Shown: piece by piece, positions 31,789 to 38,338 of the stretch
How positions within the stretch are numbered: position 1 is the stretch's first letter
How the letters are laid out: each line of letters starts with the position of its first letter
DNA from: an uncultured delta proteobacterium
GTDB lineage: Bacteria > Myxococcota > Myxococcia > Myxococcales > Myxococcaceae
Reading direction: 5' to 3'
NCBI GenBank assembly: GCA_963796055.1
Contig: CAWCKH010000005.1
Span: forward strand, 52,779 to 116,778
Length of the DNA stretch: 64,000 nt
Notes under the pieces: generated by a model
Told to the model about the DNA's origin: nothing
What the model saw: only the letters and a program-made list of their open reading frames with translations
Database searches by the model: none
Program-made: the position numbers and the translations under genes

Positions 31789-32600
31789 CGTCGCCCGGCG
31801 AAGAGCGCGTTGAGCTCCGGGTAGGGCATCGCCCCCTCGAGCATGGCCTCGTAGCCGCGTCCGTCGAGGAACTGCCGGGCGGCGCGCCGGGTCAGACCAT
31901 GGACGGCGCTGGAGATCCCCGAGCCCGCGCTCACCCGTCGCACGCCGAGTGCCCCGAGCTCTGCCACCGAAGGCAGCCGTGCCCACACCAGGACGTTCAG
32001 CGGGAGCGGGACACCGGCCACGATCTCTCGGATCGATGCCGGCTCCACGACGGCGGGCACGAAGAGTCCGTCGGCGCCGGCGTCGCGGTACTTCCGCCCG
32101 CGGGCGATGCTCTCCTCGACGGCGCGCTCGGGCGGGGTGAGCGCTTTCAGGTAAACGTCGGTGCGGGCGTTCACGAACAGATCCACTCCGGCGCGGGCGG
32201 CCCCGCGCTTGGCGGCCGCGATCCGCTCGCAGAGGACCTCGGGGCGGTCCGTCCCGTCCTCGAGGTTGATGCCCACCGCGCCGGCGCTGGCGAGGGCGAA
32301 GGCGTTGTCGGCGACGGCCGCGGGATCGGAGGCGTAGCCCGCTTCCATGTCGACGCTCAGGGGTACCGAGACGACCCGGGCGATCTCGGCGACGGCGGTG
32401 AGGAGGACGGAGGCCGGGAGCGCGCCCCCGTCGGCGTACCCGCGCGACCAGGCCAGACCGGCGCTGGTGGTGGCGATGGCCTGTGCGCCACAGGACTCGA
32501 TGACGCGGGCGCTGCCTGCGTCCCAGGCATTGGGAAGCAAGAGGGGGGTCTTTCCGTGGTGCAGTTCTCTGAAGCGCGTGGCCGCAGTGCGGGTGTCCAT
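31785..32600 (-). CDS. isocitrate lyase / PEP mutase-family enzyme
   Basis: 271 aa from ATG 32600 (MDTRTAATRFRELH). LLLPNAWDAGSARV ... ATTSAGLAWSRGYADG ... SVDMEAGY ... GINLEDG are the hallmarks of the ICL/PEPM superfamily. The exact activity is unknown. Confidence 0.8.
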   Translation of the reverse strand: MDTRTAATRFRELHHGKTPLLLPNAWDAGSARVIESCGAQAIATTSAGLAWSRGYADGGALPASVLLTAVAEIARVVSVPLSVDMEAGYASDPAAVADNAFALASAGAVGINLEDGTDRPEVLCERIAAAKRGAARAGVDLFVNARTDVYLKALTPPERAVEESIARGRKYRDAGADGLFVPAVVEPASIREIVAGVPLPLNVLVWARLPSVAELGALGVRRVSAGSGISSAVHGLTRRAARQFLDGRGYEAMLEGAMPYPELNALFAGRR

Positions 32601-32674
32601 GGTGGGGTCTCCGAAGATGTAGACTTGTCCATAGCGAGCGGGCGCAGAGGAGGCACAGTTCGCGAGCGTCGTCC

Positions 32675-32704
32675 TTGACACAGCTGGAACCGGGACCGTA
32701 CAAG
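32675..32704 (+). promoter_or_regulatory. candidate sigma-70 promoter of the tRNA-Val/tRNA-Asp pair
   Basis: TTGACA (32675-32680), then a 17-18 nt spacer, then GTACAAG. It lies about 30 nt upstream of tRNA-Val. Confidence 0.4.
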
Positions 32705-32736
32705 CGCCCCCGTCGTCGAGGAGCGGAGCCGGGACC

Positions 32737-32808
32737 GGGCGGGTAGCTCAGCGGTAGAGCATCGCCCTTACAAGGCGAGGGTCACAGGTTCGATCCCTGT
32801 TCCGCCCA
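32737..32808 (+). tRNA. tRNA-Val (anticodon TAC)
   Basis: Cloverleaf folded by hand: acceptor GGGCGGG/TCCGCCC, D arm GCTC-AGCGGTA-GAGC, anticodon arm TCGCC-CTTACAA-GGCGA, T arm ACAGG-TTCGATC-CCTGT. CCA is not encoded. Confidence 0.9.
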
Positions 32809-32826
32809 ATCGAAGACCGTCGTACT

Positions 32827-32900
32827 GGGGAGTTAGTTCAGCTGGTTAGAACGCCGGCCTGTCACGCCGGAGGTCACGGGTTCAAGTCCCGTACTCCTCG
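32827..32900 (+). tRNA. tRNA-Asp (anticodon GTC)
   Basis: Acceptor GGGGAGT/ACTCCTC, D arm GTTC-AGCTGGTTA-GAAC, anticodon arm CCGGC-CTGTCAC-GCCGG, T arm ACGGG-TTCAAGT-CCCGT. Confidence 0.9.
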
Positions 32901-32901
32901 C
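32859..32901 (+). repeat. direct repeat, left copy (3' part of tRNA-Asp)
   Basis: ctgtcacgccggaggtcacgggttcaagtcccgtactcctcgc, identical to 35934-35976. Confidence 0.95.
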
Positions 32902-33008
32902 TTCGTAAGAGCCCGGATGGACCGCGGAATTCGCTGCTGTCTCCGGGCTCCGCTTCACCCTCCGCTGGCGATGCCAGAAAGGGTCCCAGAAAACCGTTCG
33001 CGGATCCG

Positions 33009-33185
33009 CTGAGCGAGTGGGGCGAACTGCTGACGGTGAGGGAGGTGGCAGGACGGCTGCGCCTCCATCCCTCCACTGTTTACGGGCTCTGCGAGCGAGG
33101 CGAACTAGGGCACGTGCGCGTCAGCAACGCACTTCGGGTGCGTCCAGTCGACCTCGAGACGTTCGTACGGACTAGTTGTCGGTAG
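33009..33185 (+). CDS. excisionase/AlpA-like helix-turn-helix protein (start uncertain)
   Basis: The frame reads ...ELLTVREVAGRLRLHPSTVYGLCERGELGHVRVSNALRVRPVDLETFV, which is the excisionase-family HTH pattern. There is no ATG. Candidate starts are CTG 33009 or GTG 33036. It is shorter than 60 aa and so is absent from the ORF track. Confidence 0.45.
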   Translation: MSEWGELLTVREVAGRLRLHPSTVYGLCERGELGHVRVSNALRVRPVDLETFVRTSCR

Positions 33186-33530
33186 CGTCCGCAGCGGGAA
33201 CGCGAACACACCGCGACTCTTCGAAGGCTGAACTGTGCCCTCACGGGAGCCACAGTCCAGCCTGACACTGGAGTAGGGCCGCCCTGTCCTAGTTTCAGCG
33301 GCTTCGTCCGAGCTGGTCGCGTCCTCGTGTCGCGGTTTCCGACCCGGTCGAGCACACCAGACGCACACACGCCGCCAACCCCCCGGACGACCGCGGTCAT
33401 CCGAGCTTCCTCCTGAGCCCCCCGGCGCACAGGTGAGCTGCCCTAGACGGCGTCCACGTGACTGGACGGCGCGTGCAGCGCGGACCCGTCGTCGTCTCCT
33501 GGCGCAGCGGCTGCACGAGGGCCTGCGGCA

Positions 33531-34985
33531 GTGGCGCGGCGGGCGGAGACGGCGGGGGACAGGGAGCGCGAGACCGTTCTCGGGCAAGAGGGGAAGCGGG
33601 CGCTCGGGGCAGTCGAGCATCGCCGCGACGTCGAGGGCACCGTCCTGCACCAGGCCGTCCGAGGCCATCTCGCCAGCTTTCTCGCCGGGTCGGCCGACCG
33701 GGGCGGTCTTCCGCGCTTCGTCGAGCGCGACTTTGCCCGGAACCTCGCCTGCGGAGTGCCGGCGTACGGCTTCGCCCGGCTGGCCTGCGCCGGATGCCGA
33801 GCCGAAGTGCTGGTCCCCTTCTCCTGCAAGTCACGCGGAGTGTGCCCCTCCTGCAACGCCCGCCGGGCGCACGACACCGCCATCCATCTGGTGGAGCGCG
33901 TGCTTCCCCGGGCGCCGTACCGCCAGTGGACGCTCTCGCTGCCCATGCCGCTGCGCTTCTCTCTGGCCAGGGATTCCCGGCTCCTCTCCGAGGTGCTGGG
34001 CCTCTTCGTCCGGGCGCTCTTCGCCTTCCAGCGGCGGACGGCCCGGCGGCTCGGGGTGTCCCGGCCACTCACCGGCGCTGTGGCCTTCGTCCAGCGCTTC
34101 GGCTCGGCGCTCCAGCTGACGCCCCACTTCCACCTCCTCGTCCCCGAGGCCGTCTTCGAGGAGGTGCACGAGGCGGAGCTGCGCCTGCACCCCTTGCCTC
34201 GGCCCACCGACGCCGAGGTGGAGACGCTCGCCGTCACCGTGGCCCGGCGCACCCTCGCGCTGCGGCGTGCGCGCGGCATCCTCGAGGAGGAGGCCGTCCC
34301 GGACGCAGCACTCGATGTCCTGCAGCTCGAAGGCATCCAGGTGCCGCGGAGCGGGCCGCGTCCTCCCGCCCGCCGGCCGGGCCGCCGCTGCGCCTTCGTC
34401 GAGGGCTTCTCCCTCCACGCCGACACCTGGCTTCACGAAAACGACGTCACGGGCCTCGAGCGGCTCTGCAACTACGGCGCCCGCGGGCCCCTGTCGCTCG
34501 AGCGGCTGTCGGCCTTGCCCGACGGACGGCTCGCCTACCGGATGAAGCGGCCCTCTCCGGCAGGACAGACGCACCTCCTGCTGTCTCCGCTGGCCTTCCT
34601 CCGCCGGGTGGCCGCGCTCGTCCCACCCCCCAGGGCCAACCTCGTGCGTTACTTCGGCGTCTTCGCCCCCAACGCCAGGGTGCGGCCCCGCGTCGTGCCT
34701 GCGCCTCCTTCCCCTGCGCCGCTGGCCGAGGCAGCTTCCTGCCCCGTCACGCCGGAGCCTCTCCGCCCCCGGCCGCCTCGCCGCCCCATCCCCTGGGCCG
34801 AGCTCCTCCGGCGGACCTTCCAGTCCGACGTCCTCACCTGCCCGCGCTGCGGCGGCACGCGCCGCGTGGTGGCCGTCGTTCTCCGTTCCGCCACCGCCCG
34901 GGCCATCCTGGAGCATCTGCGGCTTCCCTCCAGGCCCCTCCCCCTCGCTCCAGCCGCCTCTCCGCCCCAGCTCGGCCTCTGGTGA
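33531..34985 (+). CDS. IS91-family (HUH / Y2 rolling-circle) transposase
   Basis: 484 aa, GTG start. Zinc-binding N-terminus (CAGCRAEVLVPFSCKSRGVCPSCNARR), HUH motif in TPHFHLLVP, C-terminal LVRYFGVFAPN tyrosine motif, and a terminal CPRCGG zinc ribbon. Confidence 0.8.
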   Translation: MARRAETAGDRERETVLGQEGKRALGAVEHRRDVEGTVLHQAVRGHLASFLAGSADRGGLPRFVERDFARNLACGVPAYGFARLACAGCRAEVLVPFSCKSRGVCPSCNARRAHDTAIHLVERVLPRAPYRQWTLSLPMPLRFSLARDSRLLSEVLGLFVRALFAFQRRTARRLGVSRPLTGAVAFVQRFGSALQLTPHFHLLVPEAVFEEVHEAELRLHPLPRPTDAEVETLAVTVARRTLALRRARGILEEEAVPDAALDVLQLEGIQVPRSGPRPPARRPGRRCAFVEGFSLHADTWLHENDVTGLERLCNYGARGPLSLERLSALPDGRLAYRMKRPSPAGQTHLLLSPLAFLRRVAALVPPPRANLVRYFGVFAPNARVRPRVVPAPPSPAPLAEAASCPVTPEPLRPRPPRRPIPWAELLRRTFQSDVLTCPRCGGTRRVVAVVLRSATARAILEHLRLPSRPLPLAPAASPPQLGLW

Positions 34986-35268
34986 GTGCCGTCCGAGCTT
35001 CGAGACCGCCCTACCCTGACGACGGGCCACGTACTGCTCTACCCCCAGCAGCGGTGAGCACTCCTTCCGAGCGCCTCCTGCCTTCGTCGTCCTCCCCGTC
35101 GCCGGCCGGACGACCCGGTCCGTACCTGGCTTCCGCCGCGAAAAACCCGTTTGTTCTTCCTTGGATCATATGCGACTCCCTCGTGTCGCGTTTGCTTAGT
35201 AGATTAGGACACCTAATTCATGTTTTAGGAGCAAATAAGTTGCGTGTTGCCAAAGAGGGAGGGTCGCC

Positions 35269-35748
35269 ATGAGCCTGAATTCGAGAGCGTTGTTGCTGGT
35301 GCTTTGTTTACTGGGGGCAACGGAAGTCGTCGGTCAGGAAGCCGTCACCGCACTTGACCGTACTCTTTCGAAGACCCATATGCGACAGGACACCACTTCC
35401 GTCGCGATCGCCGACGCGCCAGTGCAAGCATTCGCTCCGACGACGATTCAGTGTGGAAAGCAGAGTTGCACGGTGAGGGTTGAGGTCTCCAGCCAGTTTT
35501 TCAACGTCACTTCCGGGAACGCCGTTAGACTGCATGTCAAAGCGGATGGCGCCCCATTCCCAGTCACAGGATTTGAAATCGATGGCGGAATCAACAGACC
35601 GGTGGCGCATCTCACCACGGTGTCATCACTGAAGAGCGATCTCAGTCCAGGACCACACACCATTTCGGTGGACTTTGATATGCGAACGCCGGGTGGCAAA
35701 GCGGAGGCGTCCATTCGTATATTGACCATTCAAGTGTTTACACCTTGA
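35269..35748 (+). CDS. orphan secreted protein encoded on the low-GC insert
   Basis: 159 aa. AGAGGGAGGG RBS, signal peptide MSLNSRALLLVLCLLGATEVVGQ, beta-strand-rich body with no motif I recognise. GC is about 50% by hand count, against more than 70% in the flanks. Confidence 0.7.
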   Translation: MSLNSRALLLVLCLLGATEVVGQEAVTALDRTLSKTHMRQDTTSVAIADAPVQAFAPTTIQCGKQSCTVRVEVSSQFFNVTSGNAVRLHVKADGAPFPVTGFEIDGGINRPVAHLTTVSSLKSDLSPGPHTISVDFDMRTPGGKAEASIRILTIQVFTP

Positions 35749-35760
35749 ACAATCCAGAAA

Positions 35761-35805
35761 TCGCAGTGCTGCCACCTCGCGCACGGTCAGCAGCGCGGGG
35801 GACAT
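35761..35805 (-). pseudogene. 3'-truncated second copy of the excisionase-like gene
   Basis: The minus strand reads ATG TCC CCC GCG CTG CTG ACC GTG CGC GAG GTG GCA GCA CTG CG (MSPALLTVREVAAL). This matches the left-end gene (CTG CTG ACG GTG AGG GAG GTG GCA). Homology stops exactly where the low-GC DNA begins. Confidence 0.5.
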
Positions 35806-35933
35806 TAGGGGGCCACGGCGAGCGTTCCTAGCCCGTCCAGCGGGTCCATCCGGTCGATGGTCCGTGCCGCCGTTCTGAAGAATAGCAACAGGTTGGACGC
35901 TGTGAGCAGGCTCTGGATGATAATTAGAATCAA

Positions 35934-35976
35934 CTGTCACGCCGGAGGTCACGGGTTCAAGTCCCGTACTCCTCGC
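35934..35976 (+). repeat. direct repeat, right copy (orphan 3' fragment of tRNA-Asp)
   Basis: Perfect 43-nt copy of 32859-32901. The upstream sequence (gataattagaatcaa) has no tRNA 5' half. Confidence 0.95.
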
Positions 35977-35980
35977 AACG

Positions 35981-36277
35981 TCACTCAGCGGGAATCTCGG
36001 GAGATGCGCCGCCAGTCGCTGCAGGTGCTGACCGGCGCGCTGGCCACTCCCGGTACGCGTTGGGGTCCTCGGTGAGCACGCCGGTCTGGTCGTCACCGTA
36101 GAAGAAACGCTCGACCACCTTCCCGTCCTGCCACTCCGTCCGCACGCAGGCGAGCCAATAACTAGGGTCCGTCGATCCGTACTCATCCAGGACCACCTCC
36201 AGCGACTGCCTGGCGGCGTCGAGCGCGGTTGCCCAGCCGGAGACGGTGCAGGTCCAGTTGGCAGGGTGCTCGGACAC
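35981..36277 (-). CDS. hypothetical protein
   Basis: 98-aa ORF (MSEHPANWTCTVSGWATALDAARQSLEVVLDEY...) immediately outside the right repeat. Codon usage is high-GC. No recognisable motif. Confidence 0.35.
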   Translation of the reverse strand: MSEHPANWTCTVSGWATALDAARQSLEVVLDEYGSTDPSYWLACVRTEWQDGKVVERFFYGDDQTGVLTEDPNAYREWPARRSAPAATGGASPEIPAE

Positions 36278-36466
36278 GACGTCCTGGACCGTACACGTCG
36301 CGCCTGACGCCTGACCGTCTAACCCGGCGGGCCCACGGGACTGCTGGGGAGCGTCGGCGTTACCGTCCAGTCGCCTGTCCGGCTCCTCTTCGTGACCCGC
36401 TCAGGCGTAGGTTCCGGCCGGGGCGACGGGCAGCGCTGCCGGTGGGTTCAGGAAGGGAGGACGCCG

Positions 36467-37154
36467 ATGGCGAGCCAGGAGTTCCAGGTCTCCGTACCGG
36501 CGGGAGATGCCGTTCTGGAGGGAACGCTGGGCATCCCGGAGCGACCACGCGGGGTCGTGCTGTTCGCTCATGCCAGCGGCAGCAATCGCCACAGTCCGCG
36601 CAACCGCTACGTGGCGGGCTACCTGCAGAGCCACGGACTCGCCACCCTGCTCCTGGACCTGCTGACCACCGAGGAGGAAGAAACGGAGAGGTGGATCCGC
36701 CACCGTCGGTTCGCCGAGGACGAGACCGAACTGTCGCGACGTCACCTCGATCTCGAGGTGCGGACGTTCGCCGATCGTCTCATCGCCGCGACCGGATGGT
36801 TGGCGCAGAATGAGCAGACGCTGGGCATCTCCTATTTCGGCGCGAGTACCGGCGCCGCCGCGGTGCTCCTGGCGGCGGCTCGGACCCCGTATCCGGTGGA
36901 GGCGGTCGTTTCGCGGGGTGGGGGTCCGGAGCTCGCCGCGGATCATCTCCGCCAGGTCCGCGCGCCGACACTTCTCATCGTCGGGGGCGACGACCAACCC
37001 GTCATCGAGAGGAACCGCGAGGCGCTGGGGGACCTGGGCTCGAGCCACCCACCTCTTCGAGGAACCCGGCGCGCTGGACGCCGTGGCTCACCTCGCCACC
37101 GCCTGGTACGGGCAGCATCTGGTCGCACCCGGCCCCCGCACCCACGACGCCTAG
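36467..37154 (+). pseudogene. dienelactone-hydrolase-like alpha/beta hydrolase, disrupted
   Basis: ATG 36467 (GGAAGGGAGG RBS). VVLFAHASGSNRHSPRN ... FGASTGAAAVLLAAA (nucleophile Ser) ... VVSRGGGPELA ... PTLLIVGGDD lie in one frame. The conserved end ATHLFEEPGALDAVAHLATAWY (catalytic His) is in another frame ending at 37154. The junction is near 37035-37045 and several expected residues are missing. Confidence 0.6.
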
Positions 37155-38338
37155 TGAAGGGTCCTGGCAGCGCCGGTCCCCTGAGCCGGGGCGCCTGACT
37201 GACCCGGCTTCTCCAGGCGGCAGACGAATCCCCACCCACCGCCAAGCTCGCTCAGCGCGAGCACCAGCTCGTTCTTCCCCTTCTGCAGGGGCAGGTACAC
37301 CGCGTCGTTCTCCGGACTGACGATGCCCAGGAACCGCGGGTCGCGGAAGGCCTGGGCGCTACGCCCCCGGTAGAGGATCCTCCCGTTGAGGAACACGCTG
37401 ACGTCGTCGCTGTAGCCGAGGGCCAGCTTCTTCACCTCCTCGCGGTCGGAGGTGATGGTGGTCCGGGCGTAGACGACCTTCATCCCCGGCTGGGGCTGCA
37501 GCCGGGTCGAGAAGTCGGCCTGGAAGCTGACCCTGGGGTGGGGAGCGGAGTGGTAACGGTAGATGGCCACCAGTCCGGGCGGCTCGGCTTTCACGGCCTT
37601 CCACTGGATCGTGGCCAGCTCCGACGCGGAGAGCGGGCGCTCCAGGTCGCGTTCCAGGGCGTCATAGGTGGGCGACAAGCTCCACTTCGTCAGGGTGCCG
37701 GGAGGTGTCGGCGGCAGGTGTCGCTCCCACGGCACGTCGGGCGTCGGCCGGAACTCGAAGTTGGAGAAGTACGTCTCGCCGATGAGCACCGCCAGCGCCA
37801 CCTGGCCCCTCTGCAGACCTGACTTCAGATCGCCCATGACCAGCGCTGGCTTCTCCATGTCCTTCACGAACAGCTTGGCCCGCGCTCCCGCCACCTCCAG
37901 GCGCAGGTGGAACCAGACGTCCCTGGGGATGTCGACCGCGCCGGTGAAGCCCGGCCCGTTGTAGAGCTGCCAGTTGAGGCCGGTGTTGAGCACCGGCGTG
38001 TACTGCATGGCGTCGGCCTGCCCGGACTGATGCTGGCGGAGGTAGACCCACTCGGCGTTGGCGCCGTCGGATGCAATCCGGAACTGGATGCCGAAGAACC
38101 CGCGAGCGGCCGGCGTCGAGACGTCGACGTCGATGACCCCGTCACGCATCTCGAGCCCCTTCACCGTCGCCGCGCCCCCGTCCAAAAGGATGGCCTTGCG
38201 ACCCTGATGCTCGGTCACCTTGGCCTGTCCCTCGAGCTCCCAGCGTGGCGAGTCGGGTGGAACAAGGACCGCCTCGGGCGCGGCCGTCACCCGCGAGCAG
38301 ACGAGACAGACACCGAGGACGACGACGGGACGGAGCAT
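37151..38338 (-). CDS. secreted protein with concanavalin/LamG-like (DUF1080-like) N-terminal domain
   Basis: 395 aa from ATG 38338. Signal peptide MLRPVVVLGVCLVCSRVTAAP. The N-terminal roughly 200 aa look like a jelly-roll lectin/glucanase fold (GFFGIQFRI ... WFHLRLEV ... LFV). The 790-aa ORF-track entry is a read-through. Confidence 0.65.
   Translation of the reverse strand: MLRPVVVLGVCLVCSRVTAAPEAVLVPPDSPRWELEGQAKVTEHQGRKAILLDGGAATVKGLEMRDGVIDVDVSTPAARGFFGIQFRIASDGANAEWVYLRQHQSGQADAMQYTPVLNTGLNWQLYNGPGFTGAVDIPRDVWFHLRLEVAGARAKLFVKDMEKPALVMGDLKSGLQRGQVALAVLIGETYFSNFEFRPTPDVPWERHLPPTPPGTLTKWSLSPTYDALERDLERPLSASELATIQWKAVKAEPPGLVAIYRYHSAPHPRVSFQADFSTRLQPQPGMKVVYARTTITSDREEVKKLALGYSDDVSVFLNGRILYRGRSAQAFRDPRFLGIVSPENDAVYLPLQKGKNELVLALSELGGGWGFVCRLEKPGQSGAPAQGTGAARTLH

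Follow-up and report, generated by a model that had tools for sequence, protein, structure and literature searches.

A probable integron fragment abutting the exact end of an IS91/ISCR-like element in an uncultured myxobacterium

In class 1 integrons, the integrase gene intI is divergent from the cassettes, and the attI1 site consists of upstream GTTATGC-type repeats and an inverted CCTAA-N6-TTAGG simple site that ends at the crossover. Here, we describe a 64,000-nucleotide stretch of DNA (the window) from an uncultured myxobacterium (assembly GCA_963796055.1, contig CAWCKH010000005.1), in which a 606-bp low-GC segment at 35168-35773 is very probably a foreign, recently acquired fragment of an integron, made up of the end of an attI-type site and a gene cassette, and abuts an insertion sequence (IS) of the IS91/ISCR type. 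In IS91, the terIS end lies upstream and the oriIS end downstream of the transposase gene tnpA, and the target tetranucleotide abuts oriIS (PMC13181058). One-ended transposition of IS91 follows from failed termination at terIS and carries along DNA from the terIS side, the target DNA being that adjacent to oriIS (PMC13181058). In the related ISCR1, which is physically linked to an integron, it is the oriIS side that bears the variable region, and the POUT promoters point outward; transposition of ISCR elements has never been shown experimentally (PMC6218425). Cassette DNA is also found in genomes without an integrase, in the form of attC clusters that lack integron-integrases (CALIN), 38% of which have a neighbouring IS (PMC4889954), and of single attC sites of this kind (SALIN).

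Just as in integrons with known attI sites (attI1, chromosomal integrons), the segment holds a single promoterless open reading frame (ORF) that follows a G|TTRRRY core, and its intact copies elsewhere carry attC and stand in arrays behind intI. In contrast to these, the copy in the window has lost attC and intI, and no integron was found in the host genome or in the sampled genomes of its order. The integrons that appear as its source also differ from class 1 integrons in that their intI is co-oriented with the cassettes. With CALIN and SALIN the locus shares the presence of integron-derived cassette DNA in a genome without IntI; however, those are defined by the retained attC, whereas the remnant in the window has none and keeps part of attI, so that attC-based detectors would miss it.

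A parallel in layout is provided by the ISCR elements (ISCR1 and the element upstream of rmtC/blaNDM-1 in NZ_CP018366.1), where an HUH transposase gene is likewise followed, on the oriIS side, by a co-oriented foreign gene. The distance from the tnpA stop codon to this gene is 283 nt in the window vs. 297 nt before rmtC in NZ_CP018366.1 (locus L090, 63638-66261, with blaNDM-1 beyond). The window thus appears to resemble ISCR-type gene capture, in layout only: its TnpA is just about 39% identical to those of the plasmid elements, the partner is an environmental attI-cassette end and not the 3′ conserved segment (3′-CS) of class 1 integrons, no resistance gene is present, and the host is an uncultured myxobacterium. 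What is new here is the instance, as the kinds of element involved (gene cassette, attI, ISCR-like adjacency) are already known. Two things stand out: the spread of the cassette across phyla, and the exactness with which it is fused to an end of the IS91 family in a lineage where integrons were not found.

The low-GC segment and its relatives

The features that carry the argument are the following.

33372-35167, plus strand: IS91/ISCR-like insertion sequence, its right (oriIS-type) end exact to within 1 nt and its left (terIS-side) one approximate
33531-34985, plus strand: tnpA, intact, encoding a 484-aa HUH transposase (Pfam Y2_Tnp, 8.2e-26; Zn_Tnp_IS91, 2.1e-16)
35140-35167, plus strand: AT-rich oriIS-type terminus, GAAAAACCCGTTTGTTCTTCCTTGGATC; the same terminus occurs at 20 genomic places
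35168-35222, plus strand: last 55 nt of a putative attI-type integron site, with the hairpin GCGAC-N8-GTCGC, the palindrome ATTAGGacaCCTAAT and a simple-site-like CCTAA-N6-TTAGG, ending at the G|TT crossover
35223-35773, plus strand: putative integron gene cassette; core site mutated (TT-TTAGG-A vs. TTAGGCA), truncated 3 nt into the R″ box (GCC|TAAC) of attC
35269-35748, plus strand: cassette ORF, 159 aa; predicted signal peptide and jelly-roll beta-sandwich (about 135 aa), Cys62 and Cys67 being conserved
35763-35773, no strand: right junction; CTGCC (35769-35773) is common to the cassette and an excisionase-like gene (direct comparison, inverted repeat I1)

A preliminary description of this DNA had reported a sharp drop in GC content next to the transposase gene, and the computed profile bears this out: in 200-nt windows, GC is 0.51-0.575 across 35100-35800, as against 0.705-0.78 on the IS side (34100-35099), and beyond 36000 it is back to 0.66-0.72, the genome mean being 0.707. 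The ORF at 35269-35748, its ribosome-binding site (RBS) and a 6-3-6 palindrome at 35203-35217 are also read from the sequence where they had been placed. The boundaries had to be moved. The left one, put near 35139, marks only the break in composition, and the structural junction lies at 35167/35168, with the IS terminus between the two; the right one, put at 35760, falls short of the actual junction at 35763-35773, the identity to other cassette copies reaching 35773.

We scanned one genome per species and found the 159-aa gene at 27 loci, several of them on contigs of 0.9-4.2 Mb. According to the record titles, these belong to Steroidobacteraceae and other Gammaproteobacteria, Thermoanaerobaculia, Vicinamibacterales and other Acidobacteriota, Gemmatimonadota and Ca. 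Eisenbacteria, all as metagenome-assembled genomes (MAGs). The unit corresponding to 35225-35773 is common to 21 of the 27 loci and to one metagenome contig, with 90-99.3% nucleotide identity and sharp ends, and its GC content is 0.53-0.56 in every host, whatever the GC of that host. In 20 loci, the unit begins right after GTTAGGC or GTTAGAC, the ends of attC-like sites of other cassettes; in the window and in L032 it instead follows an attI-type site. In both settings the boundary is a G|TTRRRY core site, which is mutated in the window. Most loci run on past the equivalent of 35773 into GCC|TAACAACAGCATGCAGCTG...CAGCTGATGCTGAGCGTTAGGC, a 60-nt attC whose R″ is GCCTAAC and whose R′ is GTTAGGC; among the copies with intact attC are L018, L023 and L030.

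The genomic surroundings of these copies are those of integrons. Our attC finder, a strict pattern-plus-fold script and not the covariance model of IntegronFinder, returns counts that are lower bounds; it detected eight attC-like sites within 6.9 kb at L026 and none in the 64-kb window. In genome G305, the cassette (259760-260309 of a 956-kb contig) lies 22 kb downstream of intI (236525-237475, 436.7 bits), within an array of at least 21 attC-like sites across 238.6-262.4 kb. An integron integrase above the curated cut-off was detected in four of five cassette-bearing genomes. The vehicle is thus of the integron class, which the preliminary description had not considered.

The left 55 nt of the segment lead to the same class. 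L032 shares the window sequence 35169-35771 as a whole, and a degenerate pattern built on the palindrome region retrieved 13 metagenome contigs (L061-L073), making 14 loci with L032. These share a block of about 240 nt (for example, L069:139-380, minus strand), in which GTTAGGCG/GTTATGCG motifs recur, a GATAAT box and the hairpin GCGACAC...GTCGCG are present, and the end reads ATTAGGACGCCTAATTCATG|TT. In these soil metagenomes, the first cassette behind the block is a different one every time. The mean pairwise identity across the 14 loci is 0.71 before the crossover (TTCATG|TT) and falls to 0.27 after it; the 55 nt of the fragment are 89% identical to L063. In L063, L064, L068 and L069, a co-oriented intI is situated directly upstream of the block and ends 210-380 nt away (the L069 IntI matches TIGR02249 with 447.6 bits). 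Judging from this sequence comparison, the 55-nt stretch most probably represents the end of an attI-type site, and the palindrome (ATTAGG-aca-CCTAAT) would be part of its inverted IntI-box arrangement CCTAA-N6-TTAGG, which resembles the attI1 simple site; with its repeats further upstream, the block has the architecture of attI1. The palindrome had been regarded as a promoter or operator element; this view gives way, as it belongs to the conserved attI-type recombination site, and a consensus scan revealed no sigma-70 promoter in or around it. We also noticed a 15-mer, CCTCGTGTCGCG(G)TTT, occurring both left of the IS (33323-33337) and in the attI hairpin (35179-35193) with 14/15 matches. Although it lies close to both IS ends, as a sign of attI DNA left of the IS it was set aside as probably due to chance, the same 5.5 kb containing 13 other short two-copy families.

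The copy in the window stops at GCTGCC|, 3 nt into R″, and its own attC is not present, thus making it a cassette remnant and not a mobile cassette. Its core (35222-35231) reads GTTTTAGGAG, while every other copy has GTTAGGCAG or GTTAGACAG, so that two T are extra and one C is missing; the altered core reflects either genuine decay of the site or a homopolymer error introduced in long-read assembly. Five independent MAG copies (L016, L020, L025, L032 and L033) are also devoid of attC, with breakpoints equivalent to 35766-35771 and the next gene directly after. Breakage or fusion thus seems to recur at the base of the attC hairpin; these five look like fused cassettes, suggesting a structure-linked, recurrent deletion point.

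Several points weigh against the assignment to an integron. In four of the eight informative attI-type loci there is no adjacent intI, and in L065 and L073 an SDR gene precedes the block, so the block may not be a strict attI and could instead represent a mobile platform element. In addition, with attC absent and the core mutated, the cassette status of the copy in the window rests on homology to the intact copies.

The foreign origin claimed in the preliminary description, and a recent acquisition with it, are upheld by the GC discontinuity, by the absence of the 159-aa protein from all 300 sampled genomes of the host's order, by the 99.3% nucleotide identity to copies in MAGs of other phyla and by the fact that the segment abuts the IS to the nucleotide. 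A native gene of odd composition was rejected as a candidate on the same 0/300 count. The own genome (5.5 Mb, with nine MYXO-CTERM matches against none in controls) contains no integron integrase above the cut-off (best score, 81.7 bits vs. a cut-off of 265), no TIGR02249-type partial matches in C5:85-89 kb and no other attI or cassette sequence; its six attC-like matches are scattered. Among 301 sampled genomes of the order, intI was found in none, and the same model did detect it in the MAGs. A blastn search of PLSDB gave no plasmid copy of the 606-bp fragment, and tblastn gave no match to the 159-aa protein in GenBank phages.

The insertion-sequence end, the tRNA-Asp islet and the route of arrival

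The transposase gene in front of the fragment encodes a protein with a visible HFH motif and about 39% identity to genes annotated as "IS91 family transposase" on resistance plasmids; its closest plasmid relatives, at this level of identity, occur in thousands of enterobacterial plasmids. The own genome contains 46 matches to the IS and, by a mismatch-tolerant scan, 20 right termini. When the right ends are aligned, the copies share the terminus CGAAAnCCCGGTTTGTTCTTCCTTGGAYC, and their flanks diverge immediately after GGAYC. The stretch 35140-35167 is thus the conserved end of the IS, and the foreign DNA starts at 35168, the left junction reading GGAYC|ATATGCGAC (oriIS-type end | fragment). 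Low-GC DNA (0.53) follows just one of the 20 ends, that in the window, as compared with 0.58-0.75 after the others. The first four bases past GGAYC differ among the 20 ends, with no specific target tetranucleotide of the CTTG/GTTC type abutting oriIS. The GTTC and CTTG noticed earlier at the left junction are indeed present, at 35153-35163; they are not IS91 target footprints, because they lie within the IS's own conserved terminus and so belong to the IS and not to the insert.

At the other side, the IS boundary varies among the copies, homology starting between about 33315 and about 33422, and a subterminal palindrome is found at 33384-33403. IS91-like fragments and ends are clustered in the own genome (G000: C2:195-240 kb, C5:220-247 kb, C4:2.60-2.61 Mb and 2.99 Mb); they are mostly partial, 71-94% identical to the copy in the window, and look like old decayed copies. 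We also considered the segment as a passenger gene of the IS and rejected this, no other IS copy carrying it and the homology among the copies ending at 35167. Within the host's taxonomic family, 31 of the 61 genomes sampled, both sampled genus mates among them, have the TnpA family, thus indicating that the IS is native to the lineage.

The preliminary description had ascribed the delivery of the insert to IS91-type one-ended transposition, by which the element and the flanking DNA would have been co-mobilised by a rolling-circle mechanism and delivered together. In agreement with this, the IS terminus is exactly where the foreign DNA begins, and elements of the IS91 family do co-mobilise adjacent DNA, at frequencies of 1-14% (PMC13181058). 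Moreover, in a circular intermediate the far end of the cargo would be joined to oriIS, and the hairpin GCGAC-N8-GTCGC, only 4 nt from the junction, might have served as a pseudo-terIS. However, the cargo sits on the oriIS side and not beyond terIS, so that at least one extra recombination step would be required, and none of the other 19 IS ends has low-GC cargo. Furthermore, the suggested search for an association with IS91 elsewhere gave a negative answer: no IS91-type transposase is linked to the cassette or to attI in 42 loci (358 kb) or in the five cassette-bearing MAG genomes. With the IS native to the host family and integrons in 0/301 genomes of the order, no plausible donor of both is known. 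We consider joint delivery of this kind improbable.

At the right end of the fragment, the five nucleotides CTGCC are shared with the excisionase-like gene that follows, and the overlap grows to 9/11 nt when judged against the paralogue of this gene at 33027-33057. The fragment thus appears to be joined via a microhomology of 5-11 nt to a truncated excisionase-like gene, and both junction positions of the fragment are established. This bears on the possibility that IntI acting in trans placed a free cassette at a secondary (attG) site, as in the formation of SALIN. Such insertion of cassettes outside att sites by IntI is documented (bioRxiv 10.1101/2022.09.11.507474; see also the discussion of CALIN in PMC4889954), and a delta-attI-type cassette is known as an alternative cassette form (PMC12901181). 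This route would nevertheless bring a whole cassette with attC and no attI, whereas here 55 nt of attI and 3 nt of attC are found; the genome is devoid of IntI, and the right junction is a microhomology join and not a G|TT crossover. Insertion by IntI is accordingly given very little credence.

Both the IS and the fragment are contained in a small islet downstream of tRNA-Val and tRNA-Asp genes (32737-32901). Its features are as follows.

32827-32901, plus strand: tRNA-Asp(GTC) (ARAGORN, Rfam); its last 43 nt (32859-32901) are the left, attL-like copy of the repeat
32991-33185, plus strand: excisionase-family helix-turn-helix gene (NCBIfam TIGR01764 "excise", 33.9 bits vs. a cut-off of 28.8)
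35774-35805, minus strand: 5′ stump of a second excisionase-like gene (MSPALLTVREVA...), recognised by translation and alignment with the gene at 32991-33185
35934-35976, plus strand: right, attR-like copy of the tRNA-Asp 3′-end repeat, 43/43 nt identical, without the 5′ half of the tRNA

The 43-nt repeats bound 3.07 kb comprising the excisionase-family gene, the IS, the low-GC segment and the excisionase-like stump, and a 23-mer from the tRNA-Asp 3′ end has just two copies in the genome, at these repeats. As in genomic islets of tRNA genes with attL and attR, an exact tRNA 3′-end repeat encloses excisionase-family genes and the site varies within the genus; in contrast to such islets, no integrase is situated between the repeats, where tnpA is the sole recombinase ORF, and the content is mostly the IS and the integron fragment. 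From tRNA-Asp to the next conserved gene there are 4.3 kb here vs. 1.3, >4.7 and 8.6 kb in three relatives (L081, L082 and L084), and by this comparison the region downstream of tRNA-Asp is a variable integration hot spot in the genus. The attB sites of Myxococcus phage Mx8 lie in tRNA-Asp genes. Two neighbouring attB sites have been described for this phage (PMC6070905). Genome G102 also has a lone 43-nt tRNA-Asp 3′ fragment resembling 35934-35976. Between the attR-like repeat and the first genus-conserved gene lie 1.2 kb (35977-37200), with a minus-strand 98-aa ORF of no assigned function and a dienelactone-hydrolase-like gene, that are likewise missing from the genus mates and may represent a second, older islet.

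Since the fragment truncates the second excisionase-like gene, it arrived after the islet had formed. This order of events, along with what lies left of the IS, bears on another explanation, according to which the integron fragment was already islet cargo and the IS inserted alongside it later by ordinary transposition, making the adjacency uninformative on delivery. The multicopy nature of the IS family in this genome and the variable spacers downstream of tRNA-Asp in the genus fit such a course. On the other hand, it predicts that attI continues left of the IS, and no continuation was found: L032 compared with the window at 32600-36400 matched only at 35169-35771, and the stretch 32902-33371, which has no other copy in the own genome and a GC content of 0.63-0.72, is unrelated to any attI locus. 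In addition, chance would have had to put the insertion point at the fragment's left end, and the fragment is younger than the islet. Later insertion of the IS thus also appears a poor candidate, no better than joint delivery.

An assembly artefact, that is, a chimeric join of a fragment from another organism in the same metagenome, was weighed as well. Near-identical copies of the cassette abound across many soil MAGs, and its left neighbour is a repeated IS, which is error-prone for assemblers. Such an error would, however, need two precise junctions 606 bp apart. Both flanks are single-copy and host-type, the right one running into the attR repeat and genus-conserved genes; the junctions bear biological signatures, namely the exact IS terminus and the microhomology at the attC base; and the core-site mutations are private to the copy in the window. 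A chimeric assembly is therefore a most unlikely source of the locus.

Taken together, the data are best described by the following course. The source would be the integron platform of an unrelated soil bacterium, from which a fragment made up of the attI end and the first cassette, joined at the G|TT crossover, was derived; the cassette consists of one promoterless ORF with its own RBS, and 3 nt into R″, where the attC hairpin has its base, the fragment breaks off. Inside an integrase-less tRNA-Asp islet, it is fused on its left to the exact oriIS-type terminus of a resident IS. That the foreign DNA begins precisely at this terminus argues for a part played by the IS end, and arrival was probably neither by classical one-ended transposition nor by IntI. 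We see about an even chance that it involved the IS end, by ISCR-like capture or by homologous or IS-end recombination, together with an illegitimate join at the attC base; in the capture route, a circular one-ended product would have been rescued by recombination. It speaks against this course that a donor with both the IS family and an integron was found neither among five cassette-bearing MAGs nor among the 301 genomes of the order. As attC is lost and the genome encodes no integron integrase, integron recombination can no longer move the cassette. A bolder version, which we hold to be rather unlikely, is that incoming integron DNA, perhaps set free when prey of this predatory lineage was lysed, was actively captured by the oriIS end of the resident IS; the terminal hairpin of the fragment would then have been a pseudo-terIS or a joining site for the HUH transposase.

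The encoded protein and its expression

The 159-aa protein, whose ORF is preceded by the RBS GAGGGAGGG (35255-35263), had been described as an orphan of no recognisable family. The latter holds insofar as no Pfam or NCBIfam model matches it, and a Pfam scan of ten distant relatives also gave no family, apart from domains of an incidental kind in two of them that are long and multi-domain. The orphan label fails, as the protein is a member of a conserved family under purifying selection. A word-indexed search returned homologues in 49 clusters at the 90% level, with 63-97% identity and all metagenomic, and an exhaustive profile search extended these to 116 representatives at the 50% identity level. 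The family alignment shows a variable signal peptide followed by a conserved domain of about 135 residues, in which Cys67 is invariant and Cys62 near-invariant. The dN/dS ratio is 0.15-0.36 against copies with at least 20 differences. By these comparisons, the gene is a real, selected protein-coding gene.

AlphaFold2, supplied with the family alignment, gave a model with a pLDDT of 81.5, consisting of a nine-strand sandwich and a disordered or helical signal region. Foldseek against PDB matched this model to the N-terminal lectin domain of BC2L-C (2wq4), Photorhabdus PLTL (9ib7), the C-terminal domain of Chlamydia Pgp3 (4jdn) and BclA/BxpB, with TM-scores of 0.58-0.60 when normalised to the query and 0.63-0.69 when normalised to the target (E about 1e-4). 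The protein is predicted to be Sec-exported, with about 135 residues in its mature form, and to adopt a TNF/C1q-like jelly-roll fold. Like the TNF-like lectins (2wq4, 9ib7) and Pgp3 (4jdn), it would be a small secreted jelly-roll beta-sandwich of about 130-145 residues; unlike them, it has the Cys62/Cys67 pair specific to its own family, and the sequence identity to them is only 5-12%. The model tentatively suggests a secreted lectin-like protein, plausibly trimeric and of the carbohydrate-binding or adhesin type. This is tempered by the fact that a lectin function rests on fold similarity with a TM-score of about 0.6 and about 10% identity.

As to expression, tnpA is co-oriented with the cassette ORF, its stop codon lies 283 nt upstream of the ORF start, and no terminator-like site was predicted between them. 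Because of this arrangement, the cassette gene may now be transcribed by read-through or outward transcription from the IS, which we rate as an evenly balanced proposition. Outward POUT promoters of ISCR1 are known to drive downstream genes (PMC6218425). On the opposite side of the scales, no sigma-70-like promoter was found by the consensus scan.

Significance for the spread of integron-borne genes

The cassette occurs at 95-99% nucleotide identity in long MAG contigs titled as at least four phyla and in a myxobacterium, and thus makes very recent cross-phylum gene flow through soil integrons traceable. The locus shows how a cassette can exit the integron system and become fixed in an integron-less lineage. 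As remnants devoid of attC escape attC-based detection, the reach of integron-borne genes may be underestimated. In addition, the block of about 240 nt behind a co-oriented intI is a candidate attI class for soil integrons, and the protein family, with its predicted TNF-like fold, secretion, purifying selection and wide sharing, is an as yet uncharacterised candidate for an extracellular role of broad use.

The exact fusion at the oriIS end is an environmental version of the layout to which ISCR elements owe their importance in resistance plasmids, and it provides material on the origin of such junctions. If the resident IS did actively capture the incoming DNA, the locus would be a natural, non-clinical snapshot of the first step in the formation of ISCR-integron complexes, and the ends of rolling-circle IS would let cassettes escape into integron-free phyla.

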